This document shows positions 2,689 through 33,895 of a stretch of DNA of 37,641 bases, piece by piece. The notes beneath the pieces are model-generated. The model was not told the DNA's origin. It made no database searches and saw only the letters and a program-made list of their open reading frames with translations. Positions within the stretch are counted from its first letter, which is position 1, and each line of letters opens with the position of its first letter. The DNA comes from Thermoanaerobaculia bacterium (GTDB lineage: Bacteria > Acidobacteriota > Thermoanaerobaculia > Gp7-AA8), in contig DATLWH010000298.1 of the NCBI GenBank assembly GCA_035576505.1, positions 1 to 37,641 of the forward strand, read 5' to 3'. The position numbers and the translations under genes are program-made.

Positions 2689-2747
2689 CGTTCGCCGGGC
2701 TGAATCACAAGACCGCCCCGGCCGGCCATCCTGGCAGCAGATTCAAG

Positions 2748-3965
2748 ATGGCAGAGGATGCCATGAGCGAAGATCGTTCGGCTACGTTCCACAAGCTATA
2801 CGGAATCAGAAAGCCGAGGGTTGTCTATTATAAAAGAGATTTCCTCGACTACGTATTGATGATCGTGCTGAGCGCACTCGCTCTCAGTCTGTCGTACGGT
2901 TTTGGCCAAGCCATGTCGATCGCCGGGCTTGCTCTGTGTGCCTTCATGCTGGTCATGTTTGCGGTGAGGCACGGCGTCGAGCTCAGCGTTCCCGTGATCT
3001 TGAGAAGACCGCAGGATGTGCTTTACATGTTCGCGTATAAGCTCCAGAATTTCAAATCTCCGTATCTCATCGCGATCAGTCTCCTGCTGCTGGAAAATCT
3101 CCTGATCGCGGTAACACCGAATCTTCCGCACCATGTGGCATTGGTACGCACGGTCGCTCTCTATCTGTTTTACATCCATTTCCTTTCCATCACCGCGTTC
3201 CGAACAGTCATCCTGATCGATCATCTTCGGAAGAAGGAGCTGGTCCGTGAGGTGTTGATGCAGACCGCGTGGCGGCGGGCCATCACCGAAAAGACGAACA
3301 TCACGCTGGAAATCGTGCATGCGTACATCACCGGGCTTCTGACGCACATCATCCAGATCGCGCCGTGGTATCTCGTGATCCGCTATTTCAGCTTTTCGGT
3401 GATCTTCCTGCCGGTCGTGTGCGCGGTCAATGTCTTCGTCCACTTGAAATGGCTGCAGGGGTTCAATGGATGGTTCTACCGGGATCACTGGCTTGGGCAC
3501 AATTCGGAGGCCGAGTTTATCTTTCTCCACGGCACGCACCATGATGCCATCCCATCCGGGTTGATCGCCGTGGCGGAGAACGGCTTTCTGGAAGGGTTTC
3601 TGCGGTTCACGATCGGCTGGCCCGTGCCGTTCTACAACCCTCTGATCGCGTTTCTCATATGTATGTATGACGTCAGAACGGATATCGTCCAGCATCAGTA
3701 CATTCCTGGCGTCTATCCGAGACTATCGAGACAGTTCCTGGAGGTTTTTCAGCATCCGACGCATCACTATGGATCGCTCGAACCTTACAGCATCGGGGCG
3801 AAAGTGGATCAGCCTGGCGTTGCCGAGGCGTTCAAGAATACGTTTGCGTGGGTTCCTGACGGGATCAAGAACTCGGCCAAGCTGGACGAAGAGCTTACAG
3901 GTTTCAAATGGGACAACCCGACGCATCGGCTGATTCTGAGCCTGTACGACAGGTATCAAAAATGA
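2748..3965 (+). CDS. Polytopic membrane protein with a tripartite His-box (HX3H, HX2HH, HX2HH). Putative membrane di-iron oxygenase of the desaturase/hydroxylase superfamily. Paralog 1.
   Basis: It has multiple hydrophobic helices. The motifs are DHWLGH, HGTHHD, HQYIPG and HPTHHYG. It is homologous along its length to the ORF at 12929-14173. The start is uncertain, with ATG 2748 or 2763 both possible. Confidence 0.65.
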   Translation: MAEDAMSEDRSATFHKLYGIRKPRVVYYKRDFLDYVLMIVLSALALSLSYGFGQAMSIAGLALCAFMLVMFAVRHGVELSVPVILRRPQDVLYMFAYKLQNFKSPYLIAISLLLLENLLIAVTPNLPHHVALVRTVALYLFYIHFLSITAFRTVILIDHLRKKELVREVLMQTAWRRAITEKTNITLEIVHAYITGLLTHIIQIAPWYLVIRYFSFSVIFLPVVCAVNVFVHLKWLQGFNGWFYRDHWLGHNSEAEFIFLHGTHHDAIPSGLIAVAENGFLEGFLRFTIGWPVPFYNPLIAFLICMYDVRTDIVQHQYIPGVYPRLSRQFLEVFQHPTHHYGSLEPYSIGAKVDQPGVAEAFKNTFAWVPDGIKNSAKLDEELTGFKWDNPTHRLILSLYDRYQK

Positions 3966-6438: not shown

Positions 6439-6473
6439 CCGATTTTTCAACTGCACGGTCAAGGAGACCACGA

Positions 6474-7205
6474 ATGACTACTCAGCCTCTCATCAGTCTG
6501 CAAGGCATCAAGAAGGTCTTTTACACCGAGGAATTGGAGACAGCGGCGCTAGACGACATTCAGATCGACATCGATCAAGGCGAATATGTTTCGATCAGCG
6601 GTCCGTCCGGCTGCGGGAAATCGACGCTGTTGTCGGTGATTGGACTCCTGCATTCCGCCACCGATGGAAAATATCTTCTCGACGGCAAGGAGGTAACAGG
6701 TCTGCAATCCTCAGAGCAGGCGCGTGTGCGGAACCGGGAGATCGGGTTCATTTTTCAGGCGTTCAACCTGATTCCCGACATGAGCGCGTTCGAGAACGTC
6801 GAACTGCCGTTGACGTATCGCGACGACCTCAATAAGAAACAGCGCCATGACCTTGTCCTGACGGCGCTGGAACAGGTGAATATGGCGGAGCGCCAGAAGC
6901 ACTTCCCCTCGCAGCTGTCCGGCGGTCAACAACAGCGCGTCGCGATTGCCCGCGCTCTGGTCGGGAAACCGAAGGTTCTGCTCGCGGACGAACCGACGGG
7001 GAACCTCGATTCGAAGAACGCGCAGCTCATCATGCAGATGCTCGACGGGCTGCATGGGCAAGGCAGTGCCATCGTCATGGTCACACACGATCCGCGCTTC
7101 GCCGAGCGGGCAGAGCGGCTGATCTCGCTGTTCGACGGACGGATCGTTGAGGATCGGCGCCTTGACGCGAGCAGCTCCCCGGTAGGGGTCGCCGCAAGCG
7201 CCTGA
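6474..7205 (+). CDS. ABC transporter ATP-binding protein (MacB/LolD-type NBD).
   Basis: Walker A is GPSGCGKST, the signature is LSGGQQQRVAIARAL, Walker B is VLLADEPTGNLD and the H-loop is VMVTHD. Confidence 0.95.
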   Translation: MTTQPLISLQGIKKVFYTEELETAALDDIQIDIDQGEYVSISGPSGCGKSTLLSVIGLLHSATDGKYLLDGKEVTGLQSSEQARVRNREIGFIFQAFNLIPDMSAFENVELPLTYRDDLNKKQRHDLVLTALEQVNMAERQKHFPSQLSGGQQQRVAIARALVGKPKVLLADEPTGNLDSKNAQLIMQMLDGLHGQGSAIVMVTHDPRFAERAERLISLFDGRIVEDRRLDASSSPVGVAASA

Positions 7206-7220
7206 AGACGGGAACGCATC

Positions 7221-7469
7221 ATGACGAAGATCGAAATACTCAATCTCATCGCGCAGCATACGCGAGAGATACTGCCAGGCCTCGACGCGCACGAGTTCGT
7301 CGCTGCCGACCGCCTGGTCGACTTGGGCGCCAATTCCGTTGATCGCGCCGAGATCGCCATGGTCGTGCAGGAATCACTGGGCTTGTCGGTGTCGCGCGTC
7401 GAGCTGTTCGGGCCGAAGAACATCGGGGAGCTGGCGGATCTGTTCCTGAATAAAGCGCATGCAGCCTGA
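7221..7469 (+). CDS. Discrete acyl carrier protein, the donor ACP of a beta-branching (HCS) cassette (AcpK/CurB-like).
   Basis: It is 82 aa with the phosphopantetheine attachment motif DLGANSVDRAEI. It overlaps the start of the downstream KS-like gene by 11 nt. Confidence 0.85.
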   Translation: MTKIEILNLIAQHTREILPGLDAHEFVAADRLVDLGANSVDRAEIAMVVQESLGLSVSRVELFGPKNIGELADLFLNKAHAA

Positions 7470-8676
7470 AGCGGTCGTGACCGGGCTGGGCGTCATCTCG
7501 GCCATTGGTCAGGGGAAGGCTTCATTTATGAACGCGTTGCTTGCGGGCGAGACCGCTTTCGGCGTGATGCGGCGCCCGGGCCGCCAGAACGAATCCGCGT
7601 ATCTCGGCGCGGAGATTCTGGAAATCGGTTTCCCTCAAGCGATCACCAGGCAGACGTTGCGCGCGGCCTCGCTTTCTGTGCAGGTGGCTCTGTTCGTACT
7701 GCTGGAGGCGTGGATCGAGGCGCGGTTATACGACGTCGATCCTCGCCGGATCGGCCTCATCGTGGGCGGCTCGAACATTCAGCAGCGCGAATTGACCCAG
7801 GTTCATGAGGCCTATCGCGACTCTCCGGCGTTTCTGCGGCCCACGTACGCCCTGTCGTTCATGGATTCGGATCTCTGTGGCTTTTGTACGGCGCAGTTCG
7901 GAATACGCGGTCTGGCCTACACTGTGGGCGGCGCATCGGCGAGCGGTCAACTGGCGATCGTTCAGGCGGCGCAGGCGGTCGTCACAAAACAGGTCGATGT
8001 CTGTATCGCGGTGGGCGCGCTGATGGATCTGTCGCATTGGGAGTGCCGGGGATTGCGGGCGCTGGGGGCGATGGGGTCGGATCGCTATGCGAACGAGCCC
8101 GCGCTGGCTTGCCGTCCCTTCGACAGGGACCACGACGGATTCATTTTCGGCGAGTCCTGCGGAGCGGTGGTGATCGAGTCGCTGGAGTCGAGTCAGAGCC
8201 GGGGTCTGAAGCCTTACGCAACGTTGCGCGGCTGGGGAATCGCCATGGACGGCAACCGCAATCCCAATCCCTCGCTCGAGGGAGAAATGCAGGCCATTCA
8301 GATCTCACTCGATGCAGCCGGATGGGCGCCCGCGCAGATCGACTATGTGAATCCGCACGGCACGGCCTCGGTCGTCGGCGACGAAACCGAGCTGAAAGCA
8401 CTGCAGGCCTCCGGATTGTCGGGAGTTTTTTTAAACGCGACCAAGTCACTTATTGGTCACGGTCTCAGCGCCGCTGGTACGGTGGAAGTGATTGCCACAC
8501 TGCTGCAGATGCGGGCCGGGCGGTTGCATCCAACCCGCAATCTGGAGAATCCTATCGAGCCGACGCTCAATTGGGTCAAAGACAAGTCGGTCGAGCATCA
8601 AATCGAGAATGCGTTGACGCTGAGCATGGGATTCGGCGGGATCAATACGGCTCTGTGCTGGCAGCGGCAGAATTAG
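7459..8676 (+). CDS. Non-elongating ketosynthase with active-site Cys replaced by Ser (KS-S, malonyl-ACP decarboxylase; PksF/CurC/TaK-like).
   Basis: The fold is a thiolase/KS fold. The active-site position reads GGASASG, with the Ser codon at 7936-7938 where KSs carry Cys. Both catalytic His contexts are kept (NPHGTAS and KSLIGHGLSAAG). Confidence 0.85.
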   Translation: MQPEAVVTGLGVISAIGQGKASFMNALLAGETAFGVMRRPGRQNESAYLGAEILEIGFPQAITRQTLRAASLSVQVALFVLLEAWIEARLYDVDPRRIGLIVGGSNIQQRELTQVHEAYRDSPAFLRPTYALSFMDSDLCGFCTAQFGIRGLAYTVGGASASGQLAIVQAAQAVVTKQVDVCIAVGALMDLSHWECRGLRALGAMGSDRYANEPALACRPFDRDHDGFIFGESCGAVVIESLESSQSRGLKPYATLRGWGIAMDGNRNPNPSLEGEMQAIQISLDAAGWAPAQIDYVNPHGTASVVGDETELKALQASGLSGVFLNATKSLIGHGLSAAGTVEVIATLLQMRAGRLHPTRNLENPIEPTLNWVKDKSVEHQIENALTLSMGFGGINTALCWQRQN

Positions 8677-8679
8677 CTC

Positions 8680-9456
8680 ATGACCCTTGCCGCCTACGAG
8701 ACGATCAAGGTGGAATTCCAGGATTCGATCTGTTTCTTGCAGATCGACCGGCCTGACGCGAACAACACGATCAACAGCGAGCTCATCACCGAGTGCAATG
8801 ATGTGCTGTCGGTGTGCGAGCAGTCCGCAACTGTCGTCGTATTGAGTGGCTCGCCGGAAGTGTTCTGCTTTGGCGCCGATTTCAAGGCCATCGCCCGCGT
8901 ATCGAAGACGGAGCAGGCCGAGGACGAGGGCCCGGGGCCGCTGTATGACTTGTGGCTGCGCATTGCGTCCGGTCCGTACGTGACGATCTCGCATGTGCGC
9001 GGCAAGGTGAATGCGGGAGGCGTGGGGTTCGTCGCAGCGAGCGATATCGTTCTCGCCGACGAGACCGCGGTGTTCAGTTTGTCCGAGCTGCTGTTCGGGC
9101 TGAACCCTGCGTGCGTGCTGCCGTTCCTCATCCGCCGCATCGGGTTTCAAAAGGCGAATTTACTAACGCTGATGACACAGCCCATCTCGGCGAGGCAAGC
9201 CTGCGAATGGGGATTGGTGGACGCGGTCGAGCCGCAGAGCGATGTTCTGGTGCGTCGTTATTTGCAACGGTTGCGGCGACTGTCAAAGACCGCGATTCGA
9301 CGCTACAAGATCTACATGAGCCGCATCAACGTGCCCCTGGAAGCGCAGAGATCGCCGGCACTCGCCGCCAATCGGGAAGTTTTCTCCGACACCGACAATC
9401 TGCAAGCCATTGCCCGGTACGTCGACCACGGTATATTTCCGTGGGAAAAATCGTAG
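8680..9456 (+). CDS. Enoyl-CoA hydratase/crotonase family, ECH1-type (PksH/CurE-like HMG-ACP dehydratase).
   Basis: CFLQIDRPDANNTIN, EVFCFGADF, YVTISHVRGKVNAGGVGF, FSLSELLFGLNPACVLPFLIRRIG and the FPWE C-terminus closely resemble my recollection of B. subtilis PksH rather than PksI. Confidence 0.8.
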   Translation: MTLAAYETIKVEFQDSICFLQIDRPDANNTINSELITECNDVLSVCEQSATVVVLSGSPEVFCFGADFKAIARVSKTEQAEDEGPGPLYDLWLRIASGPYVTISHVRGKVNAGGVGFVAASDIVLADETAVFSLSELLFGLNPACVLPFLIRRIGFQKANLLTLMTQPISARQACEWGLVDAVEPQSDVLVRRYLQRLRRLSKTAIRRYKIYMSRINVPLEAQRSPALAANREVFSDTDNLQAIARYVDHGIFPWEKS

Positions 9457-9489: not shown

Positions 9490-10422
9490 ATGTTCTCAGG
9501 CCAGGGGTCGCAGTACTTCCACATGGGAAAGGCACTGTACGATGGCAACGACACTTTCCGGGACTGGATGACCCGGCTCGACGAGATTGCACGGCAGTCA
9601 TCAGGCCAGTCGGTAATCGAGACCCTTTACTCCGGTGCTCACCGCATGGGAGATCCATTCGACCGCACCCTGCTCACGCATCCGGCAATTTTCATGGTGG
9701 AATACTCGCTCGCGCAGTCGTTGATTCACGCCGGCGTGCGGCCGGTCAAGGTCCTGGGCGTCAGCATGGGCTCGTTCGCCGCGGCGGCAGTGGCAGGTTT
9801 CATCGATGCCGGCGATGCATTGACCGCCGTGATCCGGCAGGCGATTGCGATCGAAGAAGGTGGCGAGCCGGGAGGCATGATCGCCGTCCTTGCCGACCCG
9901 GGGCTCTTTGCAGAGGACTTTCTCGGCGGCCGCAGCGAACTGGCGGCCGTCAATTTCTCTTCAAACTTCGTCGTGTCCGCAAGACAAACGGAGCTGGCCG
10001 AGATTGCAACGGCCCTAAAACAACGCAACGTCGCCCACCAACGGCTTCCGGTATCGTTTCCGTTTCATTCGCAGTGGATCGATCAGGCGAAATCGGCCTT
10101 CGGTTCTTTCATGACGTCGATTCCATGTAAGCGCGGCACGTTGCCGCTGGCCTGCTGTGACAAGACCACAATCTTGTCCGACCTGTCCGATGACTACTTC
10201 TGGAACGTCGTCCGTCACCCGATTCGATTCCGCGAAACCACCGCGCGGCTGGAACGAGAGGGTACTCACCGCTACATCGACGTCGGTCCCTCAGGAACCT
10301 TGGCCACCTTTCTGAAGTACGGGCTACCCGCAGCCACCGAATCGACGGTCCATTCCATTCTGACGCCTTTCGGCGTGGATCAGAAGAATCTGGCCGCCGT
10401 GTCGGCGTCGGGCGGACACTAG
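9490..10422 (+). CDS. Acyltransferase-family protein of the PksD/PedC-like clade (putative proofreading acyl hydrolase, AH).
   Basis: MFSGQGSQYFHMGKALY, THPAIFMVEYSLAQ, the nucleophile elbow GVSMGSFAAAAVAG (no His before the Ser), PVSFPFHS and GPSGTLATF all fit. The overall pattern matches PksD-type rather than FabD-type ATs. Confidence 0.8.
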   Translation: MFSGQGSQYFHMGKALYDGNDTFRDWMTRLDEIARQSSGQSVIETLYSGAHRMGDPFDRTLLTHPAIFMVEYSLAQSLIHAGVRPVKVLGVSMGSFAAAAVAGFIDAGDALTAVIRQAIAIEEGGEPGGMIAVLADPGLFAEDFLGGRSELAAVNFSSNFVVSARQTELAEIATALKQRNVAHQRLPVSFPFHSQWIDQAKSAFGSFMTSIPCKRGTLPLACCDKTTILSDLSDDYFWNVVRHPIRFRETTARLEREGTHRYIDVGPSGTLATFLKYGLPAATESTVHSILTPFGVDQKNLAAVSASGGH

Positions 10423-10427
10423 CCCCA

Positions 10428-11189
10428 ATGCGAGTCTTTGCCCTTTCGGACATCCACATCGACTACGCCGTGAACTCCAAGTGGATTGAAGGCCTGTCCG
10501 CCGTTGAATATCAGAACGATGTGCTCATTCTAGCCGGCGACGTGACCCACGCCCCGCGACGGCTGGAATGGTGCCTCAACACGCTCGCGAGGCGTTTTCA
10601 GAAAGTGCTCTTCGTTCCCGGAAACCATGACCTGTGGGTTATCCCCGAAGACCGTAAAAAGAATTCACTGCAAAAGTTCGACGATGTCTGCGCGTTGGTC
10701 GAATCGAGCGGCGCGTCGATGCAAGCGTTTCGCGAGCGGGGTCTGTCGATCATTCCACTGCTGGCCTGGTATGACTATTCCTTCGGCGAGCCGAGCGACG
10801 AATTGAGGTCGATCTGGATGGACTACCGCGCATGCCGTTGGCCGAGCGGATACACCGACAAAGACGTCGCCGTGCACTTTGCGGCGTTGAATGACAAACA
10901 CGTCAGCGTTCTGGGCGACACCGTCATCACGTACTCGCACTTTTTGCCACGCATTGATCTGATGCCGGCGGGCATCCCGCGCTCGGGCAAGCTCCTCTAT
11001 CCAATCCTGGGCTCGGCGAGACTGGACCGCCAGTTGCGAAGGCTAAACGCAAACATTCACGTCTACGGACATAGCCATGTGAACCGTCGCGTGAAGATCG
11101 ACGGCGTAACGTACATCAACAATGCATTCGGCTACCCCAGCGAGACCTGGATCACCTCGAAGGGCCTGATGAGTATCCATGAGTGGTAG
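10428..11189 (+). CDS. Calcineurin-like metallophosphoesterase.
   Basis: The full motif set is present: SDIHID, AGDVTH, GNHDLW, SHF and YGHSH. It overlaps the downstream PPTase start by 11 nt. Confidence 0.85.
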   Translation: MRVFALSDIHIDYAVNSKWIEGLSAVEYQNDVLILAGDVTHAPRRLEWCLNTLARRFQKVLFVPGNHDLWVIPEDRKKNSLQKFDDVCALVESSGASMQAFRERGLSIIPLLAWYDYSFGEPSDELRSIWMDYRACRWPSGYTDKDVAVHFAALNDKHVSVLGDTVITYSHFLPRIDLMPAGIPRSGKLLYPILGSARLDRQLRRLNANIHVYGHSHVNRRVKIDGVTYINNAFGYPSETWITSKGLMSIHEW

Positions 11190-12012
11190 TGCCGCGGACC
11201 GGCGCAGCCAGGCGGAGAGCGGGATCATCCCGCTCACGCCAGCCGAGATTCATGTATGGCTCGCTTTTTACGATGAAATCAGCGACGAGCGCCTGCATGC
11301 CGTCTATCGTCATCTGCTCGATGACGCGGAAAGGGAACAGGAACCACGCTTCTACTTCGCGCGCGACCGGTGTCGTTACCTGGTTACGCGGGCATTGGTG
11401 CGGACGGTATTGTCGCGCTACGCGCCCATCGCGCCCGAGGAATGGATGTTTTCCACGAATGCCTATGGGCGGCCGGCGATCGCGAACGATACTGCGCGCC
11501 ACCTATCGTTCAATATTTCGCACACGCACAGTCTGATTGTTCTCGGCGTGACCAGTCGGCGCGCGTTAGGGTTGGATGTCGAGAACGTCCGCGACCGGCC
11601 AGCGTCGATCGATATCGCGGCTCACTATTTCGCGCCACAGGAAGTTGCGGTGCTTACTGCCGCGCCGCCGCTTCAGCAGCAGGATCGATTTTTTGAGTAC
11701 TGGACGTTCAAGGAATCGTACATCAAGGCGCGGGGCATGGGTTTATCCCTGCCCCTCGACAAGTTCAGCTTTCACTACCCGGATGATCATGCCGTCGAGA
11801 TCGCCATCGATGCCGACCTGGCCGACGATGCGGCACGCTGGCAGTTCTGGCAGTTCCGGCCGAGGCCGGAATACCTGGTCGCGGTCTGCGCCGAGCGAGT
11901 CGGCGCTCAGCCTGCGAGTCTTATCGCTCGGCAGGCAATTCCTATGTTGGCTGACAAACCATTTGTTCTCGACTTCCTCCGGGTTTCAGAACACGCGCAA
12001 CAGGAGAGTTAG
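11179..12012 (+). CDS. Sfp-type 4'-phosphopantetheinyl transferase.
   Basis: FNISHTHSLIVLGV, GLDVE and FEYWTFKESYIKARGMGL (the W/KEA motif) are present. The stop TAG is immediately followed by the ATG of the next gene. Confidence 0.85.
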   Translation: MSGSAADRRSQAESGIIPLTPAEIHVWLAFYDEISDERLHAVYRHLLDDAEREQEPRFYFARDRCRYLVTRALVRTVLSRYAPIAPEEWMFSTNAYGRPAIANDTARHLSFNISHTHSLIVLGVTSRRALGLDVENVRDRPASIDIAAHYFAPQEVAVLTAAPPLQQQDRFFEYWTFKESYIKARGMGLSLPLDKFSFHYPDDHAVEIAIDADLADDAARWQFWQFRPRPEYLVAVCAERVGAQPASLIARQAIPMLADKPFVLDFLRVSEHAQQES

Positions 12013-12885
12013 ATGATCGCCTTTGTATTTCCCGGTCAAGGTTCACAGAAACGTGGGATGGGTCAAGGTTTGTTCGATGAAGTGCCTGAATATGCCGCGG
12101 TTGAGAAGGATGTCGACGCCATTCTCGGCTATTCAATGCGGGCGCTGTGTCTGGAGGACGCGGATAACCGTCTGAGACAGACACAATTCACTCAGCCCAG
12201 TCTCTACGTGGTCAATGCGCTGCACTACTACAAGGCGGCCGGCGAGGGTGCCCGGCCCGCGTACCTGGCGGGCCACAGTCTGGGCGAATACAACGCGCTG
12301 CTCGCGGCGGGCGTGTTCGATTTTCTGACTGGGCTCCGACTGGTGAAGAAGCGGGGGGAGTTGATGTCGCAGGCAAAGAATGGCGGCATGGGCGCGGTGA
12401 TCGGCCTGAGTGCCGGCGCGATTGCCAAGGTCGTAGCCGAGAGCGGACTGCAGAGTCTTGACATCGCCAATTTCAATACACCGTCGCAAACGGTGGTATC
12501 GGGCCCGGTCGACGACATCAGGCGCGCCGGTTCGTTCTTCGAGAAGGCAGGCGCCCAGATGTATATCCCGCTGCAGGTCAGCGCCGCCTTCCATTCGCGA
12601 TATATGGCGGATGCCGCGAACGTGTTCGGTGATTTTCTCGCACCGATGTCGTTTGCTCCGCCGAAAACGCCTGTCGTCGCCAACGTGACCGCCCAGCCGT
12701 ACCCTGCCGACGACAGTTCGGAGTCGGTCAAATCGCTGCTGGTGAATCAGATCACGCATTCCGTCCAATGGGCGCAGAGCATCAGCTTTCTCATCAGTCA
12801 GGGCGTCACGACATTCAGTGAACTGGGTCCTGGAAATGTGTTGACGCGGATGGTGCAACAGATTCAGCAGCGAAAAGCCGCCTGA
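12013..12885 (+). CDS. Malonyl-CoA:ACP transacylase, free-standing trans-AT (FabD-like).
   Basis: FVFPGQGSQ, GHSLGEYNAL and VSAAFHS are present. The size is 290 aa, and all PKS modules downstream lack AT domains. Confidence 0.9.
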   Translation: MIAFVFPGQGSQKRGMGQGLFDEVPEYAAVEKDVDAILGYSMRALCLEDADNRLRQTQFTQPSLYVVNALHYYKAAGEGARPAYLAGHSLGEYNALLAAGVFDFLTGLRLVKKRGELMSQAKNGGMGAVIGLSAGAIAKVVAESGLQSLDIANFNTPSQTVVSGPVDDIRRAGSFFEKAGAQMYIPLQVSAAFHSRYMADAANVFGDFLAPMSFAPPKTPVVANVTAQPYPADDSSESVKSLLVNQITHSVQWAQSISFLISQGVTTFSELGPGNVLTRMVQQIQQRKAA

Positions 12886-12928
12886 CGTATCGCCACGCTT
12901 GCCGAGGCGAATCCCTCGGGAGGAATCT

Positions 12929-14173
12929 ATGGGTAGGACAGCTCCGCGCCGTTCATTCATGATGCAGTACCGCGCGGAAGATTTCCCGCTCTACTTGTTG
13001 GGGCTGGTGCTCGCCGGCACGCTGATCGCGCCCGCACTTCCGAGCCGAAGTGAACAACTGTTGCTGGTTGCCGCTCTCTTGTACATGGTGGCGTTCTTCC
13101 TGATCAAGCACGGCGCGAAATTCGAGGTGCGCTTCTTTCACGATGTTCTCGAGGGGCTGACGCGCTATCCGGTCATGCTGGTGCGCAACTGGTGGATGGC
13201 CCGTCATGCCATAATCCCCATCACCGGCGTATTTTTGCTCGCGCTGACCGGCGAACGCTTCCTGCGTCCCGCGCTTGCCGGCACGAAGTGGCTCAATCGT
13301 TTTCCGTGGTGGTGGGTGGTGTGGACCGCGTTCCTGCTCATCACGTTGTTTCGGGTGACGATTCTGATCGCCCATCTGCTCCGTGCTTCGGTCGTTCGCG
13401 AAGTACTTGAGGACTCGGCGCAGAAAAAGATGATCGAAGTTTTGCCGATGCACCAGCATATCCTCCATGCGTTCATCACCGGCATGCTGGCGCATCTATC
13501 GGTGGTTGCGCCCTGCGTTTTGTTCTACATGCTGACCAAGCCGTCAAACTTGCGCGAGGTGTTGCTCGTAGCCGGCTATGTGGTCTGGTCGGGGGTGGCC
13601 CGCCCTCTGAAGAAGCGCAAGATCATCGAATCGCCGCCAAAAATCGGCTTCAACCTGGTATATCAGAATCATACGATCGCTCACAGGTCGCGGTTCTTTT
13701 TCACCGTTTTTCATGGTCATCACCATGATGCCATCCCGTCGGCATTGATCGGATCCGCCGGCGGAACGGGATTCTTTGAAAACGTCGATCGGGGACTGAC
13801 CTGGCTCGATTTCCTGAATAGCGTCGTGGTCATGCAAATCCTGTGGGGCTATTCGATTCTGTTCGACATGGTCGTTCATCAATACATCCCGGGCGTATTT
13901 CCCTTCGCCAAAGTAACGGTCCTCGGAACCGCTCACCACGTCACCCATCACTTCGGCAGCGCACTTCCTCTGGGACTGATCTTTAACGGGTATATCGAGA
14001 CCCGTGACTACGACAACGGCTACAAGTCGGACAACAAGGTGACCCGCTGGTTCGTCGATCAGGTGGAGCGGCGGGAGGGACTCGACCCGGAGCTCCGCAG
14101 GAAGTACCTGGCATTCGGTCCGACAACGTCTTCACTGTCCAGCGATGCCTCCACCCGTGCCGCGGCCGAATAA
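12929..14173 (+). CDS. Polytopic membrane His-box protein, paralog 2 of 2748-3965 (putative membrane di-iron oxygenase).
   Basis: The motifs are NHTIAH, FHGHHHDAIPS, VVHQYIPGV and TAHHVTHHFGS. It shares VREVL and HAFITGMLAH blocks with paralog 1. ATG 12929 is preceded by gggagg. Confidence 0.7.
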   Translation: MGRTAPRRSFMMQYRAEDFPLYLLGLVLAGTLIAPALPSRSEQLLLVAALLYMVAFFLIKHGAKFEVRFFHDVLEGLTRYPVMLVRNWWMARHAIIPITGVFLLALTGERFLRPALAGTKWLNRFPWWWVVWTAFLLITLFRVTILIAHLLRASVVREVLEDSAQKKMIEVLPMHQHILHAFITGMLAHLSVVAPCVLFYMLTKPSNLREVLLVAGYVVWSGVARPLKKRKIIESPPKIGFNLVYQNHTIAHRSRFFFTVFHGHHHDAIPSALIGSAGGTGFFENVDRGLTWLDFLNSVVVMQILWGYSILFDMVVHQYIPGVFPFAKVTVLGTAHHVTHHFGSALPLGLIFNGYIETRDYDNGYKSDNKVTRWFVDQVERREGLDPELRRKYLAFGPTTSSLSSDASTRAAAE

Positions 14174-14261
14174 GGGCCCATCACGTTGGTCGTTTCCTGT
14201 TCGGTAACCGATTTTGCCGCCTGATTTCATTCGCTGATATCTGCACGTCAAGAGCGCTACA

Positions 14262-14510
14262 ATGACGCAACAGGAACTGCACCGAGATTTGACCGAGTCC
14301 TATCTCAAATCTCTCATTGCCGAGGTTTGCGATTCTTTGAGCTCAGATTTCGACTCGTCGACGGCATTTGGTGAGCTGGGGATCGATTCATTCTATGTGT
14401 TGAAGATCGTCAGAAGGCTGGAGGCGGACTTCGGTACGTTGCCCAAGAGCCTTCTTTTCGAGCACTTCCGCATCAGCGAATTGGCGAACTACTTCGTCAC
14501 GAAACACGCC
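14262..14510 (+). other. ACP0, a carrier domain at the extreme N-terminus of the PKS.
   Basis: The motif is FGELGIDSFYVLKIVRRLE, with the Ser43 codon at 14388-14390. Confidence 0.8.
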
Positions 14511-17500
14511 CAGACGATCAATGCGAAGTTTGCCGCGGAACTGGAGGGTGCGGTTTCGCCCGCTTTGGGCGGCGGCCGGCAACTGGAACTGGTTGCGCCG
14601 ATGGAAATAGTCAAGGTGGCTCCGGTGAAGGCGCGCACGTCCGTGGAGCAAAAGCCCCTCCGCATCCTGGAGAGCAAAGCCCGGACGCATCCCAAGATCG
14701 GGCCGCTCGTCCGGGAGCTTTACGACCGCTATAAGTACGAAGGAACCGCGTCGCGCGGGACGAGAAAGATTGCGCCGAATCTATTCATCGGCGGCTCGAG
14801 GCGCGGCTATTTCAACTACGGGCGAAGCAAGGACATCATCCTGGTGTACGGCTATAGCGGGGCGCAGGACTATCTGCCCACGCTTCGCGAGGAAATGTCC
14901 GGCTATTGTGATGCAAACGGCCTTCAACTCAATTTCTTCAGCGACGGAGAGATTCCGCCGATCGCCGGACGTTCGTTCTCAGCCACGCCGTTCGGCGTAA
15001 TGCAGCGCATCGTGAACCTCAAGGAATTCTCCCTCGAGGGCGGCGCGATGCGCCGCCTGCGATATCAGGTATCCAAGTTCCAGAAAGCCGGCGTGGCCAG
15101 AACGGAAGAGTACCGGAGCGGCACCAGGCCCGACACGGACCAGGACATCGCCCGCGTCATCGATCGATGGTGCGAAGGGAAGACGATGGTCAACCCGCTG
15201 GTGCACGAAGTGAAAGGCGAAATTCTCGCCGGCACGCTGCCCGCGGAGCAGCGGCTGTTCCTCACGTATCTCGACGAGGTCCTCCAGAACGTCATCCTCG
15301 TCGATGAAATGTCGCCCGAAATCAACGGCTACTTGATGGATCTGGAATTCTATCCTCCGGAGATGCCGATGGGAGGGCTGGATCTCGCGATTGTACAAAT
15401 CGTGGCCATTCTCGCCGCGGAAGGCCGCGATGTGCTGAGCCTGGGCGGGACCTACGGTGTCAAGATTGAACCCTCCGCCACCGCGGATCCCGAGCTCGAC
15501 AAGCTCCTGGACAATCTGCGTGAACAGAACATATTCAATGACGAGAGCAATCTTCAGTTCAAGAACAAATTCCGCCCGCTGACCATGCCTATCTTTCTCT
15601 GCCGCCCGATAGGCAGCGGCAATCCCGACAATATCCTCGACATCATCATGATGATTGCCGATCCGGAGAGGATGCAGACGCCGGATGAGGAGACCGACAC
15701 CTTCGGAGATACCGCTCCGCCCGAGGTCGCGACGGTGATTGCAGAACCGGTGGCGCGTCGGTCAATGGCTGTGGCAGCGGCGCTGGCAAGTGCCGATCAG
15801 GTGATCGAAGGGAATGATCGGTCGAGCGTTCTGGCGGAATTCGGTTTCAATCCCCTCAATATTCCGCACGAACATGTCGCGATCGATCTGAAGACCGACT
15901 CGTGGGCGCAACTGGAGATGCCTGCAATCGCGGCGCAAATGAAGCATCTGCATTCACGACTGCAGCAGCCGGCGAGTGTCGACGACAGCTTGAGGGCGGT
16001 CTTTCCGTTCCCGCATTTCGTCCTTACGACCTCCGGGCAGGCGGCCGAGAGCATCTTTTTCAAGACCTGGCCGAAGAAAGGCGTCGTACCGCAGAATCTG
16101 CTGTTTCCCAGCACGATCTTCCATCAGATCGACAAAGGCTTCACGCCGAGGGAGCTGCCTCATCCCGCGGTCTTCCAGTTGAATGCGCGAGAGCCGTACA
16201 AAGGCAACATGGATCTCGATGCGCTACAGGCGCTGGTGGCGCAGGATCCAGCCGCAATTGCCTGTGTCTGCATCGATGTAGGTAACAATGCTTCAGGCGG
16301 CCAACCGGTCTCCTTGCAGCATCTGCGCGACGTCAGAGCGCTGCTCGCCGCACATTCCATCCCACTCGTGATCGACGGCACGCGGGTGATGGAGAATGCG
16401 CAGTTCCTGATCGAACAGGGAAAGGAATGCGGGGGCAAGAGCATTTGGGCGGTCGTGCGGGAGATCTTCTCCTGCGCTGACGCGGTCATCGGAAGCCTGA
16501 CGAAGGATTTCTGCGTCAACAAGGGCGGAATCGTCGCCATCAATGACATCAAGCTGTTCCAGAGACTTCAGGAGGTCGTTCTTGAAGAAGGAGCCGGGCT
16601 CGATCTGATCGATGCGAAACTGATCGCTCTTTCTCTACAGAAGCGAAAGCACATCGAAGCCAAGGTGTTGCGCAGGATGGAGGGTGTGCGCCTCATCTGG
16701 CAGGCCTTGGCCGAGCGTGGCGTTCCGGTCGCGCAACCCGCCGGTGGGCACTGCATTCTGATCGACGTCAAGCAGATTCCAGAATTCAGGGCTCTCGGGA
16801 ATCCGGTCGCGTCATTCCTGGCCTGGTTGTATTTGAACACCGGGATTCGCGCGGGCGCACACAGTGTGGGAATGCAGAAACGTACCCCGATCAATGATCT
16901 TGTCCGTCTGGCCATCCCTGTCGGCTTGAAGCGTGAGCAAATCGACAACGTGATTGACCGGCTTGTCGATGCATTCGGGAAGAAGACGAACATTCCTGAA
17001 ATCGTGATCGAGAGCAGCGTACCACAGCCGCTGGGCAGCGTCTACGCGAAGTTCAGATTAGAGAAATATCATCACGTTTCAGGAGGGATCGCCGCCGGAA
17101 CAGACGCCGCGCCTTCTTCCGTTGCCGGCCCATCGCCAGTTTCACCGGAGCCGGCGGAGGTTTCGTCGCCAGGCGAGGCCGTCGTGGTTGACAGCGTACC
17201 CGCCGAAACTCCATCCGCACCGACTCCCATGAATGCGAGACCGCGCCGCGCGCACAACGTTGCCATTGTCGGAATGGCGGGCCGTTATCCCAAAGCGGGC
17301 AATGTGAGGGAGCTGTGGGAGAATCTGGCCGGCGGCAGAGACTGCATTGAAGAGATTCCCGCCGAGCGCCATGAACGCCGGCTGCAGCATGGAAGCAACG
17401 AGAGGTATCGCGGCGGTTTCATCGACGGCGTCGATAAGTTCGACTCTCTCTTCTTCAACATTTCTCCCAGAGAAGCGGAAATGCTGGATCCGCAAGAGCG

Positions 17501-20500
17501 CCTGTTTCTCGAGGTGGCGTGGGAAGCAATCGAGGACGCCGGCTACTTTCCCGAGATCCTGGCGCGGGAGGATACGTCGCGTACGATCGGTGTATTCGTC
17601 GGGGCCGTATGGGCGATGTACCAGGTCGTCGGCGTCGATGAACAGCGCGCCGGCAATGAGGTCGCTCCGAACTCATTTCTGTGGAGCATCGCCAACCGCG
17701 TCTCCTACTGGATGAATCTGTCCGGCCCCAGCCTGACGGTCGACACGGCATGCTCGTCGAGCCTGACGGCCCTCTATCTGGCGTGCGAGGCTATCCAGGC
17801 CGGCGAATGTTCCGCCGCCATCGTCGGCGGCGTAAACCTCGACCTGCATCCGGCCAAACTGGATATCAATAAGATCGGCGGCGCGCTCTCGCCTGACGGT
17901 GTCTGCCGCACCTTTGGGAAGGGTGCGAACGGGTATGTAGCAGGTGAGGGCATCGGTGCGCTCCTTCTCAAACCTTTGGATCATGCGGAGCTGGACCGCG
18001 ACCACATCTATGGCGTGATCAAGGGCGCCGTGGTCAACCATGGCGGCCGTACGAGTGGATATTTCGTTCCCAATCCGTCGGCGCAAAGCAACGTGATCCA
18101 GTCGGCGCTGCTCAAAGCGAATGTCGCGGCGGGAAGCATCGGGTATATCGAGGCGCACGGTACAGGCACCGAACTGGGTGACCCGATCGAGATCTCGGGT
18201 TTGAATAGCGCGTTCAGCGGGGACAAGGTCGAGAATCAAACCTGCGCCATCGGCTCGATCAAGAGCAACATCGGCCATCTGGAAGCGGCGGCGGGAGTGG
18301 TCGCCGTCTCTAAGGTCCTCTTGCAGATGACCCATCGGCAGCTCGTGCCTTCCCTTCATTCCTCCGAGCCGAACGAGCACATCGATTTCGAGCATTCGCC
18401 TTTCTATGTCGTACAGAAGCTGGAGGAGTGGAAAGCGAAGGAAGTGGATGGGGTGCGGCTTCCCCTACGCGCGGGAATCAGCTCGTTTGGCGCCGGGGGA
18501 GCGAACGCGCACATCATCCTGGAGAGTTATGAGCCCGCCGGACAAGCGACAGAAGAACCGGCCATGCCGTCGGACTTGATCTTCCCTCTCTCAGCCAGGA
18601 ATGAGGATCAGCTGCGCGACGCCGCTGTTCGGCTGGCGCAATTCCTTCGACAGAACCGCGTCGACTTGAGGGACGCAGCCTATACCCTGCAACAGGGGCG
18701 GAAGTCGTTCGAGCAACGTCTGGCAATCATCGCCAAAACCCAGGAAGAATTGATCGAGAAGCTGACACTGGTCATCGACCAGCAGAGGGGCGACGGCATT
18801 GTGGCCGGCCATGTGAAGCTCGCGGAGAGTGTCACGCGGTTACTGAACCGAAGTGAGAGACAGGAGTTCGTTCGGATGCTGTCGGCCGGCCGGGATCCTC
18901 ACAAGATTGCCGCATTGTGGGCTGAAGGACTGCTCACGGACTGGCAGGGGTTTCAATCCAAAGGCACCGAAAAGAGAATCTCGTTGCCCACCTACCCCTT
19001 TGCCGGCAAGCGACACTGGATCGGCGATCCGTCGGCGGTGCGCCGCGCATTGCAGCCGGTGGCGGGCACGCACCCGATGGTCGACACGAACGAGTCCACC
19101 TTTGAGCGGCAGCTCTTCAAGAAGACATTCCACGATCGCGACTTCTTCATTTACGACCATCTTGTGTCGGACATCCCCACGCTACCCGGCGTGGCGTATC
19201 TCGAGCTGGCGCGGGTCGCCGGAGAAATCGCGGCTGGTAGGCCGGTGCGACGTATTCAAAACATTCTTTGGGTGAGTCCGATTGTGGTTGAGAACTCGAT
19301 CCCCAAAGAGGTGTTCATCGAGCTGAAGCCGAGCGGAGACGCCGTACAGTTCGAAGTGTTCAGCGAGTCGGCCGAGGGCGTCAGGCTGCTACACTCACAG
19401 GGAAGACTTCTCTACACGAACAGGCCGGAATCCTCCGCGGATCCGGAGTTCGTCGATTTGGATGCCATTCGCGCACGATGTGCGAAAGGCATCGATGGAA
19501 AGAGCGCCTATCCGCTCTTCAAATCTGTCGGCCTCAGCCTCGGTCCGAGCTTTCAGGTCCTCCAGGAAATCTATCAGAGCGATACGGAAGTCCTCGGAAT
19601 TCTGAAACTCCCCGAGTTCCGTCAACCCGACCTGCAAAGCATGGTTCTCCATCCCTCACTGATCGATGGTTCCCTGCAGGCCGGAATGGCCGCGCGCCTC
19701 GGCGCCAGCATCGGCGAGATGCTGGTGCCCTATTCCATCGGCGAGGTCGAGATCCTCCATCCATTGCAATCCCTCTGTTACAGCTATACGACGGAGGCGG
19801 GCGGTAAGAAGGGCTCGCGCGTTCTGAAATCTAACGTACTGATCCTGGACGAAACCGGGAAAGTCCTGGCAAGAATTCGCGAATCGACCGGCGTGCCTCT
19901 GGGTGATGTCAACAAAAAGTCCGACAGGGATGCGGCGGAGGCGGGCGATGCAAAGGTCTACTATTCGTACGAATGGGGGAAGGCGCCTCTGACTGCTGGT
20001 AGTCCGAGCCGGAATGCACCGCAATCGATTCTGCTGTTCGATACCCAGGAAACACTGCGCGATCTCTATCAGGTCCGGCTGACGGAAGCAGGGGCGACGA
20101 CCGCACAAATCATCCTGGTGCAGCCGGCTGCTTCGTTCCGCGAACTGGACGCTCTCTCTTACGAGATCAATCCACAGAGCAGGGATGACTTTACGCTGCT
20201 CTTCGAATCGCTGGCGGAAAGAAAGTGCCCGATTGACGAGATCTGCTTTGCCTGGCCGGTTGAGCACGTGGATTTCCGTGATGAGCAGCTCCGCGGAGAA
20301 GCATTGGAGAGAGGGGTTTTCTCCTTCCTGTTCCTCTGCCAGTCCGTCATTCAGGCGAAACTCGAAGGAAAGGTGCAGCTCCTTTATCTTTATGCAGCGC
20401 GGCCGGACGAGGCACAGCCGCAGAACGAGGCCATGAGCGCTTTCGTCAAGACGCTGAAGGGGGAGTACCCCAGGTTGCTCTGCAAGGCGCTCGAGATTCG

Positions 20501-23500
20501 GCAGGAGATGGGCGGCTACGGCCAGATCGTCGACGCCGTATGGGCGGAGCTTCGCGCACGCACCGAGGATGCGAGTGTGGTGCGCTATGAGGCGCAGGAG
20601 CGCTTTACAAGGAGGCTCACAGCCTTCGACTTCGAAGAGACCGATGGGCCGCCTTCTTCGGAAGGTTCGCATCTGAGGGAAAAAGGCGTCTATCTCATTA
20701 CGGGAGGAGCCGGCGGGCTCGGCCTCATCTTCGCCGAGTTTCTGGCGAAACAGTACAAGGCACGATTGATCCTCACCGGCCGATCCGCTCTGTCGGCTGA
20801 ACGGGAAGCCGAGCTGGAGGCGCTCCGAGGATACGGCGCGGAAGTGATCTATCTGCTCGCCGATGTCTCCAGCCTCGACGATGTCCGGACTATGGTCAGC
20901 GAAAGCAAGTCGCGTTTCGGAGAGATCAACGGCCTCATCCACGCCGCCGGCGTCGTCAGGGACTCGTACATCAGGAACAAGACGCCGGATGAAATGAGCG
21001 AGGTTTTCGCCCCCAAGGTGCATGGAACGCTGCATCTGGACGAGACAACCCGGAACGAAGCGCTCGATTTCTTCGTGATGTTCTCCTCGCTCGCTGCCGT
21101 CACCGGCAATGTGGGCCAATGTGACTACAGCTTTGCGAACCATTTCATGGATTCGTTTGCGGCCGACCGCGAAAGGCTTCGGGTCCAGGGAGAGCGGTCC
21201 GGAAAGACACTGAGCATCAATTGGTCGTTGTGGGCCGGGGGCGGAATGAAGCCCGACGAACAGACCGAGCTCCTGTTGCGGAAAGCCATGGGCATGAAGC
21301 CGCTGAGCGCGGCCGCGGGCATCGAAGCGTTCGTGCTCGGTCTTGCTTCAGGACGCTCGCAGTTTGCAGTCCTCGAGGGGAATGCCGAGAAGCTGGAACT
21401 GGCTCTGGGAGGGAGAAAGAAGGAGCCTGCGCCTTCGCCGCCACCATCGTCCGATCACGCCGCGGCCGCGGTTGTTGCCGCTGAAGGAGACAGGGATCTT
21501 CGTGAGTTGGTGCAGAACGATCTCTCGAAGATCGTCATGGGGCTCCTGAAGCTTGATGCCGCCGACTTGTCGGCAGACAAGATCCTGCTCGACCTGGGTT
21601 TCGACTCGATCGGCCTGACGACGTTCGCAAACGCGGTGAACGACAAGCTGCAGCTCGACATCACGCCGATCCTGTTCTTCGACTATCCGTCGATCGGTGA
21701 GATCGCGACGCATCTGGCTGACGAGCGGAGGAGCGAGCTTCATCACTTCTATCGAGGTTCTGCGGCCCCCTCGGCCGGTACACCGTTGCCAGCAGCACTA
21801 CAAGCGAAGATCGTCGCCGCTGAGAGCCTATCGGCGACCTTCACGCCCAAGAAGGGGTGGGATCCGGCTGCCTTCGATCGCGAAGCATCGGACAGGAAAG
21901 CAATACCAACGGCTTCCGGCGAAGACGTTTCCGCGGAGCTCCGTTTTGTAAACAAGCCGATGGCAATCGTCGGGATGAGCGGCGTCATGCCGCAATCCGC
22001 GGACCTGGAAGAATTCTGGGATAACCTGAAGAACTCGAAAGATCTGGTCACAGTCATCCCGCCCGATCGCTGGCGCTGGGAGGACTACTTTGGCGATCCC
22101 CTCAAGGAGGCGAACAAGTCGAACTCCAAGTGGGGCGCGTTCATGAAGGAGATCGACAAGTTCGATCCTCTGTTCTTCGGAATCTCCCCAAGAGAAGCGC
22201 AGATGATGGATCCGCAGCAGCGGATCTTCCTCGAGCAAGTGTGGAAGGCGGTGGAGGACTCCGGGCAGAAAGTCTCCCAGCTTGCCGGCACAAAAACCGG
22301 AATATTCGTCGGCGTTGCAACCAATGATTATCTCGAAGTCATCACCGGCGGGGGAGCCGTGCTGGACGGATATAGCGCTTCGGGCAACTCGCACGCCATT
22401 CTCGCGAACCGGGTGTCATTTCTCCTAGGTCTGCGTGGACCAAGCGCACCCCTGGACACCGCTTGTTCCAGCTCATTGGTGGCGATGCACAGAGCCATTG
22501 AATCGATCCATTCGGGAAGCTGTGAGATGGCGATCGTGGGTGGCGTACAGGTAATGCTGAGCCCTGCCGCATACATTTCTTTCTCCTCGGCAGGAATGTT
22601 GAGTCCCGATGGAAAATGCAAGACGTTTGACAAGCGGGCGAACGGCTATGTGAGAGGCGAGGGATGCGGCGCAGTCTTCATCAAGTCGCTCGCGGCCGCC
22701 GAGGCGGATGGAAACCACATATACGCGGTCATCAAGGCGACGGCGGAAAATCACGGCGGGCGGGTGACGGCGATGACTGCACCGAACGCATCCGCTCAAG
22801 CGGAGCTCTTGATCGAGGCTTACGAGAAAGGACATCTCGATCCCGGGACCGTTGGGTATATCGAGTGCCACGGCACGGGAACCAGCCTGGGAGATCCGAT
22901 CGAAACGCAGGCGCTTAGCAAGGCGTTTGCCGAGCTGTACAAGCGGCACGGCAAGGCTCCGGCGGACACGCCTCACTGCGGCTTGAGCTCTGTAAAGACC
23001 AACATGGGACACCTCGAGACCGCAGCCGGGATTGCAGGTATCCTCAAGGCATTGCTCGCCATCAAGCACCAGCAGATTCCGGCGAACATCCATCTGGAAG
23101 AGGTCAATCCCTATATAAACCTCAAGAGGACTCCGTTCTACATCGCGGACAAACTCACTTCATGGAAAGCGCCGGTGAGCGTGGATGGGTCTCCTGCCCC
23201 TCGCACGGCCGGCGTGAGCTCGTTCGGCTTCGGCGGAGCCAATGCTCATGTCGTACTGCAGGAGTACCTCGCTCCACTCCGTCAATCGCTGTCTGCAGCG
23301 TGCGAGCCTCGGTTGATCGTGCTGTCCGCGAAAACTGAAGATCGGCTCCTGGCATACATGCAGTCAATACATTCGTACCTGGAGAGGCTGGATGTCGAGT
23401 TGATCGATCTCGCGTATACGCTGCAGATTGGAAGAGATGAGATGCCGGCAAGACTGGCACTGGTCGTCTCCAGTACAGAGGAGTTGAAACAGAAGCTCGG

Positions 23501-33733: not shown

Positions 33734-33895
33734 ATGGAAACAGTGAACGAGTTTCTCAGGACGTTGGTCAGCAAGGGCGTCAAGCTGTCGGCCGTTGCCG
33801 GCCAGCTGAACTGCTATGCCCCGAGCGGGTCGGTCACAAATGACATCAGGAAAGGCATTACCAGGCACAAGCCGGAGATCCTTGCACTATTAGAA
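33734..33895 (+). other. TubC-type N-terminal (beta-hairpin) docking domain.
   Basis: The sequence METVNEFLRTLVSKGVKLSAVAGQLNCYAPSGSVTNDIRKGITRHKPEILALLEG fits the pattern of the TubC_N docking family. Confidence 0.65.

Follow-up and report, generated by a model that had tools for sequence, protein, structure and literature searches.

We analysed a 37,641-nt stretch of DNA from an uncultured Acidobacteriota-like soil bacterium (a Thermoanaerobaculia bacterium, contig DATLWH010000298.1; the whole stretch is referred to as the window), in which a hybrid polyketide synthase/nonribosomal peptide synthetase (PKS/NRPS) line is opened by an ACP-DUF-SH unit, that is by an acyl carrier protein (ACP), a domain of unknown function (DUF2156) and a pyridoxal 5'-phosphate (PLP)-dependent beta-eliminating lyase assigned to the cysteine/thiocysteine-lyase (SH) type. 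A single open reading frame (ORF) on the + strand (14262-26159, starting at an ATG at 14262 with an in-frame stop at 14235) encodes the first PKS protein (protein A, 3965 aa), for which Pfam and a motif scan gave the order ACP0-DUF-SH-KS-DH-KR-ACP-KS-DH-KR (KS, ketosynthase; DH, dehydratase; KR, ketoreductase), without an in-line acyltransferase (AT).

The N-terminal carrier protein (ACP0, aa 14-77, 14301-14492; PF00550, E 6.7e-8) has its phosphopantetheine serine, Ser43, in a G-I-D-S motif (14388-14390, motif scan), and no docking region lies ahead of it, the position of Ser43 leaving room for the normal ACP helix I only. It is followed by the DUF domain (DUF2156 or LPG_synthase_C-like, aa 181-447, 14802-15602; PF09924, E 6.8e-15, 55 bits versus a cut-off of 27.5), which is the 'DUF' of the DUF-SH didomain, and by the SH domain (aa 515-919, 15804-17018; assigned by Pfam, NCBIfam, phmmer, the fold of an AlphaFold2 (AF2) model and a tree), the three domains together taking up ~930 aa. 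A Pro/Ala/Ser linker separates the SH domain from the first ketosynthase (KS1, from aa 999, 17256-18536; PF00109, E 1.9e-76), which is taken to be elongating because its Cys-His-His triad is intact (Cys1164; motifs DTACSSS at 1161, HGTGT at 1297 and NIGH at 1336); the triad is present in all four KS domains (motif scan). The original prediction, made from the letters alone, had described a tryptophanase/tyrosine phenol-lyase-like domain at 15816-16990, fused in-line before the first KS. The placement stands, the translation of this segment is as quoted, its ends lie within ~10 codons of those of the domain and the resemblance is far beyond chance, but the ACP and the DUF2156 domain upstream had been overlooked.

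The second PKS protein (protein B, 2506 aa, 26200-33720, + strand; MT-ACP-KS-ACP-KS-KR-ACP by Pfam and motif scan, MT being methyltransferase) completes a module that is split between A and B at the KR/MT boundary. It is followed by an NRPS gene (33734-37639, + strand; open frame, Pfam and the gene call on ENA contig k141_712097) with the order TubC_N docking-C-A-PCP-C (C, condensation; A, adenylation; PCP, peptidyl carrier protein), which runs off the end of window and contig, as the source contig (ENA ERZ27256710, k141_712097) stops at the window end, inside the NRPS. Module by module the line reads ACP0-DUF-SH, KS-DH-KR-ACP, KS-DH-KR/MT-ACP, KS-ACP, KS-KR-ACP, C-A-PCP and C..., with continuity from gene to gene provided by the split KR/MT-ACP module (A to B) and by the TubC_N dock (B to the NRPS). 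Proteins A and B both lack an AT domain and two discrete ATs are encoded upstream, which gives a trans-AT context. As its frame runs off the window, the NRPS gene is absent from the mechanical ORF list; the minus-strand 'ORFs' listed across this region (e.g. 36086-36997) are antisense artefacts, and an Rfam scan of the window gave no match.

Family, fold and catalytic residues of the lyase domain

The membership in Beta_elim_lyase that had been expected for the segment was found in Pfam (PF01212, aa 571-824; E 1.1e-30, 107 bits versus a cut-off of 27), and the best match is to no other PLP fold type. In NCBIfam nearly the whole lyase (aa 518-919) aligned with the tryptophanase subfamily PRK13238 (E 3.6e-66) at a score below the cut-off (223.8 versus 285), and the scores of TIGR02618 (tyrosine phenol-lyase (TPL); E 6e-50, 170 versus 720.7) and TIGR02617 (119 versus 825.8) were likewise below theirs. 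The best match of a phmmer search against the PDB was 9cen_A ('Polyketide Synthase Protein', E 3.4e-61), followed by TPLs (near 2e-46) and tryptophanases (1e-34 or weaker). The entry 9cen, released 2024-09-25, is entitled 'thiocysteine lyase (SH) domain from guangnanmycin A biosynthetic pathway' and represents the SH domain of GnmT, to which the window domain is 33% identical (191 bits, BLAST). An AF2 model of aa 497-929, for which a 24-sequence alignment was used, had a pLDDT of 91.1 and 9cen as its top fold match (TM 0.82-0.86, root-mean-square deviation (rmsd) 2.5-2.8 A); the TPLs came close to 9cen in TM, at an rmsd of 4.5-6.2 A. A model of aa 1-963 from the single sequence was unusable (pLDDT 39.7). 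In a rough neighbour-joining tree the PKS-embedded domains, including GnmT-SH, form one clade with a long branch to TPL, and within it a C-terminal type (including GnmT-SH) stands apart from an N-terminal type (including the window domain). Together these results leave little doubt that the segment is the SH-type domain of an ACP-DUF-SH unit.

Residues were compared in a MAFFT alignment, using the numbering of the Citrobacter freundii TPL. The Lys that had been noticed at the PLP position is K748 (16503-16505, in the motif S745-L-T-K-D749), which aligns with TPL K257 and is the predicted Schiff-base lysine; among 24 homologues, 90% or more have a Lys at this position (K252 of alignment A1). 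The Asp that had been thought to pair with the pyridine N is D705, aligned with TPL D214, and the alpha-carboxylate ligand R404 is kept as R882. The same is true of T49/D50/S51 (window 545-547, T49 being T545), G99, F123 (615), N185 (676), T216/R217 (707/708), S254, D258 and N262. Two of the catalytic residues proposed for comparison with TPL are replaced, namely the general acid Tyr71 (Y74 in TnaA, H564 in the window) and the Lys next to the PLP lysine (K256, T747 in the window), which breaks the Lys-Lys pair. In addition, R381 and Y291 are deleted, Q98 is replaced by Ser and the monovalent-cation (K+) site is not kept (G52 deleted, E69 replaced by Ile).

The window domain and 9cen share the S-L-[S/T]-K-D motif and both lack Tyr71, Lys256 and Arg381, features that are seen alike in the SH domains of LnmJ and WsmR. 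We also found the SH residue pattern in leinamycin-type matches that end in a thioesterase (TE; P0031, P0036, P0041 and P0043). The same pattern of kept and lost residues was described by Milano et al. 2013 for PKS-embedded Beta_elim_lyase domains (PMC3870968). Compared with free TPL and tryptophanase, the window domain is alike in fold (TM 0.77-0.85) and in most PLP and carboxylate residues (identity ~29-33% to TPL and 24-25% to TnaA), and differs in being embedded in a megasynthase and in lacking Tyr71, Arg381, Lys256 and the K+ site. The idea of a genuine tryptophanase or TPL joined to a PKS was rejected, as the scores fall short of the curated cut-offs and the residues for specificity are absent. 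For the same reasons Trp and Tyr, both of which had been listed as candidate substrates, were rejected: the TPL Tyr71 is a His here and Arg381 is deleted.

Relatives of the ACP-DUF-SH unit and known systems

No PKS domains other than SH domains are known to introduce a hydropersulfide or thiol intact into a polyketide, and the ACP-DUF-SH unit has been studied only in the terminal module of Streptomyces pathways. Warheads with such sulfur groups underlie the DNA-alkylating activity of leinamycin. The DUF-SH didomain was first found in LnmJ of the leinamycin PKS, and work on the SH domain established it first as a PLP-dependent cysteine lyase and later as a thiocysteine lyase, which puts the -SSH group on C-3 of leinamycin, guangnanmycin and weishanmycin (PMC8479088). 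C-S lyase activity on cysteine or thiocysteine adducts is known only for the SH domains of GnmT, LnmJ and WsmR (PMC8479088), and SH domains are dimeric in solution (PMC8479088, Suppl. Fig. 12). PKS-embedded lyases belonging to Beta_elim_lyase have been catalogued since 2013 (PMC3870968), and antiSMASH 7 includes a 'thiocysteine/beta-eliminating lyase (SH)' profile. The window domain is thus no novel recruitment of a catabolic lyase (PMC3870968; PMC8479088), and the premise of the original prediction that beta-eliminating lyases are normally free tetrameric catabolic enzymes is outdated for the PKS context. The beta-elimination chemistry that it expected would, by analogy, agree with that of the SH family.

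The N-terminal ACP-DUF-SH-KS layout had already been catalogued as well. Meng et al. (2021) described 109 DUF-SH clusters, which fall into four groups by similarity; three of these groups are 'non-LNM' (LNM, leinamycin) and include Lysobacter sp. ATCC 53042, Chromobacterium vaccinii, Tahibacter, Burkholderia, Corallococcus and an Alteromonadaceae bacterium (PMC8479088). DUF2156 was named in LNM-type PKSs before (PMC3870968, Table 2), in a table that also gives the orders 'CP-DUF2156-PLP3-KS-KR-CP-KS' for Kordia algicida A9ECY5 and 'CP-DUF2156-PLP3-KS-KR-CP-KS-KR' for Lysobacter sp. ATCC 53042 F8TUA6/AEH59109. Phillips et al. noted a single ACP and no TE in the non-LNM DUF-SH modules. The window protein shares the N-terminal ACP-DUF2156-lyase-KS layout of these PKSs (PMC3870968 Table 2; PMC8479088 Suppl. 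Fig. 4-5), and both it and its relatives, including the Lysobacteraceae and Flavobacteriaceae loci at 52-61% identity described below, belong to this 'non-LNM' CP-DUF2156-PLP-KS group. Whereas the Lysobacter, Kordia, Chromobacterium vaccinii and Tahibacter members are catalogue entries, the window adds an acidobacterial-type member; the fusion itself is not new, and placement at the start of a line is unusual, not unique.

With the SH domains of GnmT (9CEN), LnmJ and WsmR the window domain has in common that it is a PLP domain of the Beta_elim_lyase fold in an AT-less PKS, behind DUF2156 and an ACP; it is only ~33% identical, falls in another clade and has Gln in place of R100. The context differs as well. 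Module 8 of the LNM type is a terminal, off-loading KS-ACP-ACP-DUF-SH-TE module from Streptomyces, whereas the window unit comes from an uncultured Acidobacteriota-like soil bacterium and stands at the N-terminus, with one ACP only and with a KS, not a TE, behind it. In the LNM type a cassette with an HMG-CoA synthase (HMGS) and without ECH2 yields the carboxylated beta-branch acceptor; the window has genes for a donor ACP, for KS0 and for a crotonase of the ECH1 type, with no HMGS in view on this incomplete contig.

In a collection of 5.8 billion proteins the closest proteins were fragments from metagenome-assembled genomes (MAGs) of Acidobacteriota, at 70-75% identity. A genome scan, with one genome per species, recovered 27 loci, those at 66-75% identity from Ca. 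Angelobacter, Terriglobales, Terriglobia, Thermoanaerobaculia and Blastocatellia and those at 52-61% from Fulvivirga, Flavobacteriaceae, Bacteroidales, Fibrobacteres, Lysobacteraceae, Kangiellaceae and Phenylobacterium. The window protein is 66-78% identical to MAG proteins and identical to no named one; its closest full-length relative (P0064, 78% identity) has the same domain order as protein A. The N-terminal clade is widespread in uncultured Acidobacteriota from soil (Ca. Angelobacter, Terriglobales, Thermoanaerobaculia), as well as in Bacteroidota and Lysobacteraceae. In all 27 loci, from at least 6 phyla, the ORF starts at the ACP, with the shared start M-x-x-Q/K-E-L-L, and a KS follows the lyase in every locus that is long enough, two loci ending inside or just after the lyase.

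An exhaustive HMMER search over 1.84 billion cluster representatives found 321 proteins with E <= 1e-30. Where a protein among the best 150 had 2000 aa or more and matched the full didomain, the unit stood at the N-terminus in 16 cases, inside the protein in 19 and at the C-terminus in 18. An ACP directly precedes DUF-SH in every one of the 27 representative full-length proteins that were domain-mapped. According to these domain maps, the module of internal units is mostly KS-DH-(KR)-ACP-DUF-SH, i.e. one that makes an enoyl-ACP, and that of C-terminal units is KS-ACP-ACP-DUF-SH, of the beta-branch enoyl type. Two representatives of ~6145 aa (P0076 and P0077) have an internal ACP-DUF-SH and a second DUF at the C-terminus after three ACPs, with no SH detected beside the latter in the domain maps.

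The DUF domain has been proposed to conjugate thiocysteine onto a beta-branched enoyl thioester (PMC7618002), and the enoyl or beta-branch type of the modules before the unit fits conjugate addition to an enoyl thioester. Against the PDB the DUF domain of protein A gave weak matches to domains of aminoacyl-phosphatidylglycerol synthases (LpiA, MprF and A-PGS, E 1e-5 to 1e-4). It shares PF09924 with the C-terminal domain of these enzymes but is very distant from them, embedded in a PKS and without a membrane domain, and its score with NF033480 (aminoacyl-phosphatidylglycerol synthase/MprF) was far below the cut-off (22 bits versus 600).

Proposed role of the unit and alternative explanations

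We consider it probable, at roughly 0.6, that the segment represents the SH domain within an ACP-DUF2156-SH sulfur unit acting as the N-terminal loader of a trans-AT PKS/NRPS. That ACP0 is a loader is suggested by its invariant N-terminal position, by the lack of a docking region, by the operon-first position of the gene and by the continuity from A via B to the NRPS. A further point for a loader role, which does not settle the starter, comes from one relative (L022, a Kangiellaceae MAG) with a gene for the ACP-loading enzyme FkbH beside its PKS gene: a free-standing fkbH (6087-7175; TIGR01686, 285 bits versus a cut-off of 147) lies immediately upstream of the ACP-DUF-SH PKS gene, which hints at a glycerate-derived unit on the N-terminal ACP in that lineage. 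No FkbH, adenylation or CoA-ligase-type loader was found in the window.

By analogy with the characterised systems, the odds are slightly in favour of a sulfur-bearing starter being loaded by ACP0-DUF-SH. An alpha,beta-unsaturated acyl group would be put on ACP0 in trans, as may be supposed from GnmT, LnmJ and WsmR, and the DUF domain would add the sulfur of L-cysteine or L-thiocysteine to the beta-carbon of the acyl group. The SH domain would then form an external aldimine via K748, abstract the alpha-proton and eliminate an ACP-bound alkyl (per)sulfide; the aminoacrylate released would decay to pyruvate and NH3, and KS1 would take over and extend a starter bearing -SH or -SSH. In this scheme the direction of the chemistry is suggested by homology with the three characterised SH domains, the part of the DUF domain in sulfur addition is presumed, and an enoyl acceptor is made plausible by the modules with a DH or a beta-branch that stand before the unit in other proteins.

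Several points weigh against such a sulfur-loading unit. In the literature searched there were no biochemical data on any N-terminal ACP-DUF-SH unit, nor anything relevant on a characterised N-terminal DUF-SH loader, on products of Fulvivirga or Acidobacteria, or on '9CEN'. No enzyme in the window can be assigned to making an enoyl starter on ACP0, what looks like a beta-branching cassette being without an HMGS, and the contig ends inside the NRPS, which leaves room for another PKS protein feeding ACP0. The sole detectable homologues of the DUF domain are aminoacyl-tRNA-dependent transferases, hinting at other chemistry. With regard to the lyase, the PLP-phosphate ligand R100 of TPL is replaced by Gln593 in the window domain, as in its closest relatives, and is an Arg in most other SH domains. 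The window domain is also 33% identical to TPL (180 bits, BLAST), so that GnmT-SH is no closer to it in identity; GnmT-SH and TPL share 27% (BLAST), from which we infer that the N-terminal SH clade is less diverged from the free lyases.

The replacement of R100, the unkept K+ site (G52, E69) and the loss of Tyr71, Lys256 and Arg381 might be read as the marks of a degenerate, purely structural lyase remnant without catalysis. We regard this as highly improbable, since the PLP Lys, D214, F123, N185, T216, R217, S254 and R404 are kept, also in most or all homologues down to 33% identity, the same losses occur in the enzymatically active SH domains of GnmT, LnmJ and WsmR (PMC8479088), and the fold is confident (pLDDT 91). 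The tRNA connection of the DUF domain leads to another explanation, close to that of the original prediction, which had an amino acid as the starter, giving an aminoacrylate or pyruvoyl unit: the DUF domain would move Cys or Ser from an aminoacyl-tRNA to ACP0 and the lyase would eliminate H2S or H2O, leaving a dehydroalanyl- or pyruvoyl-ACP for KS1. It would be in line with the loading-module position of the unit, with the lack of genes in the window that would obviously supply an enoyl starter and with the fact that the only DUF homologues of known function (LpiA, MprF and A-PGS, PF09924) are tRNA-dependent aminoacyl transferases, although the match to MprF is the one at 22 bits versus a cut-off of 600. 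The lyase itself speaks against it. R404 (R882) and T49 (T545) are invariant or nearly so across the PKS SH domains, which favours a substrate with a free carboxylate and would make little sense for one thioesterified through its carboxyl group, as an amino-acid starter would be. The characterised SH domains indeed use cysteine adducts with a free carboxylate, and in these systems the amino acid is a discarded sulfur donor, attached through its side-chain S to the acyl chain on the ACP and lost as pyruvate and NH3 (PMC8479088). Moreover, ACP-DUF-SH is also found after DH-containing modules, where the ACP already bears a polyketide. An amino-acid starter is therefore quite unlikely. Slightly less doubtful, and still speculative, is the broader notion that the N-terminal ACP-DUF2156-SH is a distinct type of loading module, which would turn tRNA-charged Cys or Ser into a dehydroalanyl or pyruvoyl starter or would make a persulfide or thiol starter from a trans-loaded unsaturated acid.

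The ACP0-DUF-SH unit may also not be a loader at all: its chain could come from a PKS/NRPS protein beyond the end of the contig, with a KS there handing over to ACP-DUF-SH, or the unit could service a later intermediate in trans, e.g. the beta-branched chain of module 3, as in leinamycin module 8. For this it can be said that the contig stops inside the NRPS, leaving the cluster incomplete, and that the KS-ACP of module 3 leaves a beta-keto group at which branching could well occur. Trans-AT clusters, besides, are often non-colinear. The donor ACP, KS0 and ECH1 without ECH2 also mirror the leinamycin-type cassette that makes the substrate of the DUF domain (PMC7618002). We nevertheless think this a minority prospect, as no docking region precedes ACP0, the N-terminal position is kept in 27 loci and the gene comes first after an antiterminator in several phyla. 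In relatives whose locus extends far enough KS1 follows directly in cis, and the N-terminal-type SH domains form a clade of their own, suggesting a dedicated role.

The occurrence of the same neighbourhood in more than a dozen acidobacterial MAGs points to a widespread family, probably with sulfur-bearing lipopeptide or polyketide products. The compact ACP-DUF-SH offers a system for working out the function of the DUF domain. As a genome-scan finding the domain is ordinary, since Pfam and antiSMASH 7 would label it, and its significance grows only if the N-terminal unit proves to depart from leinamycin chemistry.

Neighbouring genes

Upstream of the PKS genes we found a donor-type ACP (7221-7469), a KS0 in which the active-site Cys is replaced by Ser ('GGASASG', 7459-8676; PRK07103, 617 bits, above the cut-off) and an ECH1-type crotonase (8680-9456; PRK07112, 404 bits, above the cut-off), all on the + strand. 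The three genes are contiguous, their arrangement is syntenic in many Acidobacteriota relatives, and they look like a beta-branching cassette. No HMGS was found in the 37.6-kb window nor in the 10 kb upstream of the relatives, where gaps of 1.2-1.6 kb hold an ACP-GNAT-like gene or a flavoprotein and not an HMGS.

The cassette is followed on the + strand by a divergent trans-acting AT (AT1, 9490-10422), a calcineurin-like metallophosphoesterase (10428-11189), a phosphopantetheinyl transferase (PPTase, 11179-12012) and a typical FabD-like AT (AT2, 12013-12885). In AT1, GVSMG stands where a GHSxG nucleophile elbow is canonical, and the match to FabD is weak; AT1 might act as a proofreading acyl hydrolase or serve to load the starter. 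The metallophosphoesterase gene runs 11 nt into the start of the PPTase gene, and the pair is kept, flanked by the two AT genes, in relatives from Acidobacteriota and Lysobacteraceae, the order AT1-phosphoesterase-PPTase-AT2 being kept in relatives that include a Lysobacteraceae MAG. The wider neighbourhood KS0-ECH-AT-phosphoesterase-PPTase-AT is common to the acidobacterial loci.

Two paralogous membrane proteins of ~430 aa (2655-3965 and 12899-14173, both + strand) contain the His-boxes HGHHHD and HHVTHH and match FA_hydroxylase below threshold, and homologues occur in five of the relatives' loci (L007, L009, L011, L020 and L024). The second of them, a 424-aa ORF directly upstream of the PKS gene, was considered as an HMGS and rejected on account of its membrane His-boxes and the lack of a Pfam or NCBIfam match above threshold.

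Near the start of the window lies a gene for a NusG paralogue of the UpxY/RfaH type (296-994, + strand). In Bacteroidota and Fibrobacteres loci a NusG-like/UpxY antiterminator gene directly precedes the ACP-DUF-SH PKS gene (L012 8702-9274, L014 8931-9506, L017 7025-7645 and L019 2216-2794), which suggests that ACP-DUF-SH PKSs are encoded in very long operons under processive antitermination. Export genes of the HlyD/MacB/ABC type are found at 1387-2688, 4018-6438 and 6474-7205, the HlyD-like gene being preceded by a 25-nt intergenic direct repeat (2 copies with 92-96% matches, 1199-1256). At the very start of the window a 21-nt tandem repeat (7 copies with 87% matches, 1-148) encodes KRDLVE[S/A/T] heptads in a + strand frame that is open over 1-381 and runs off the window start.

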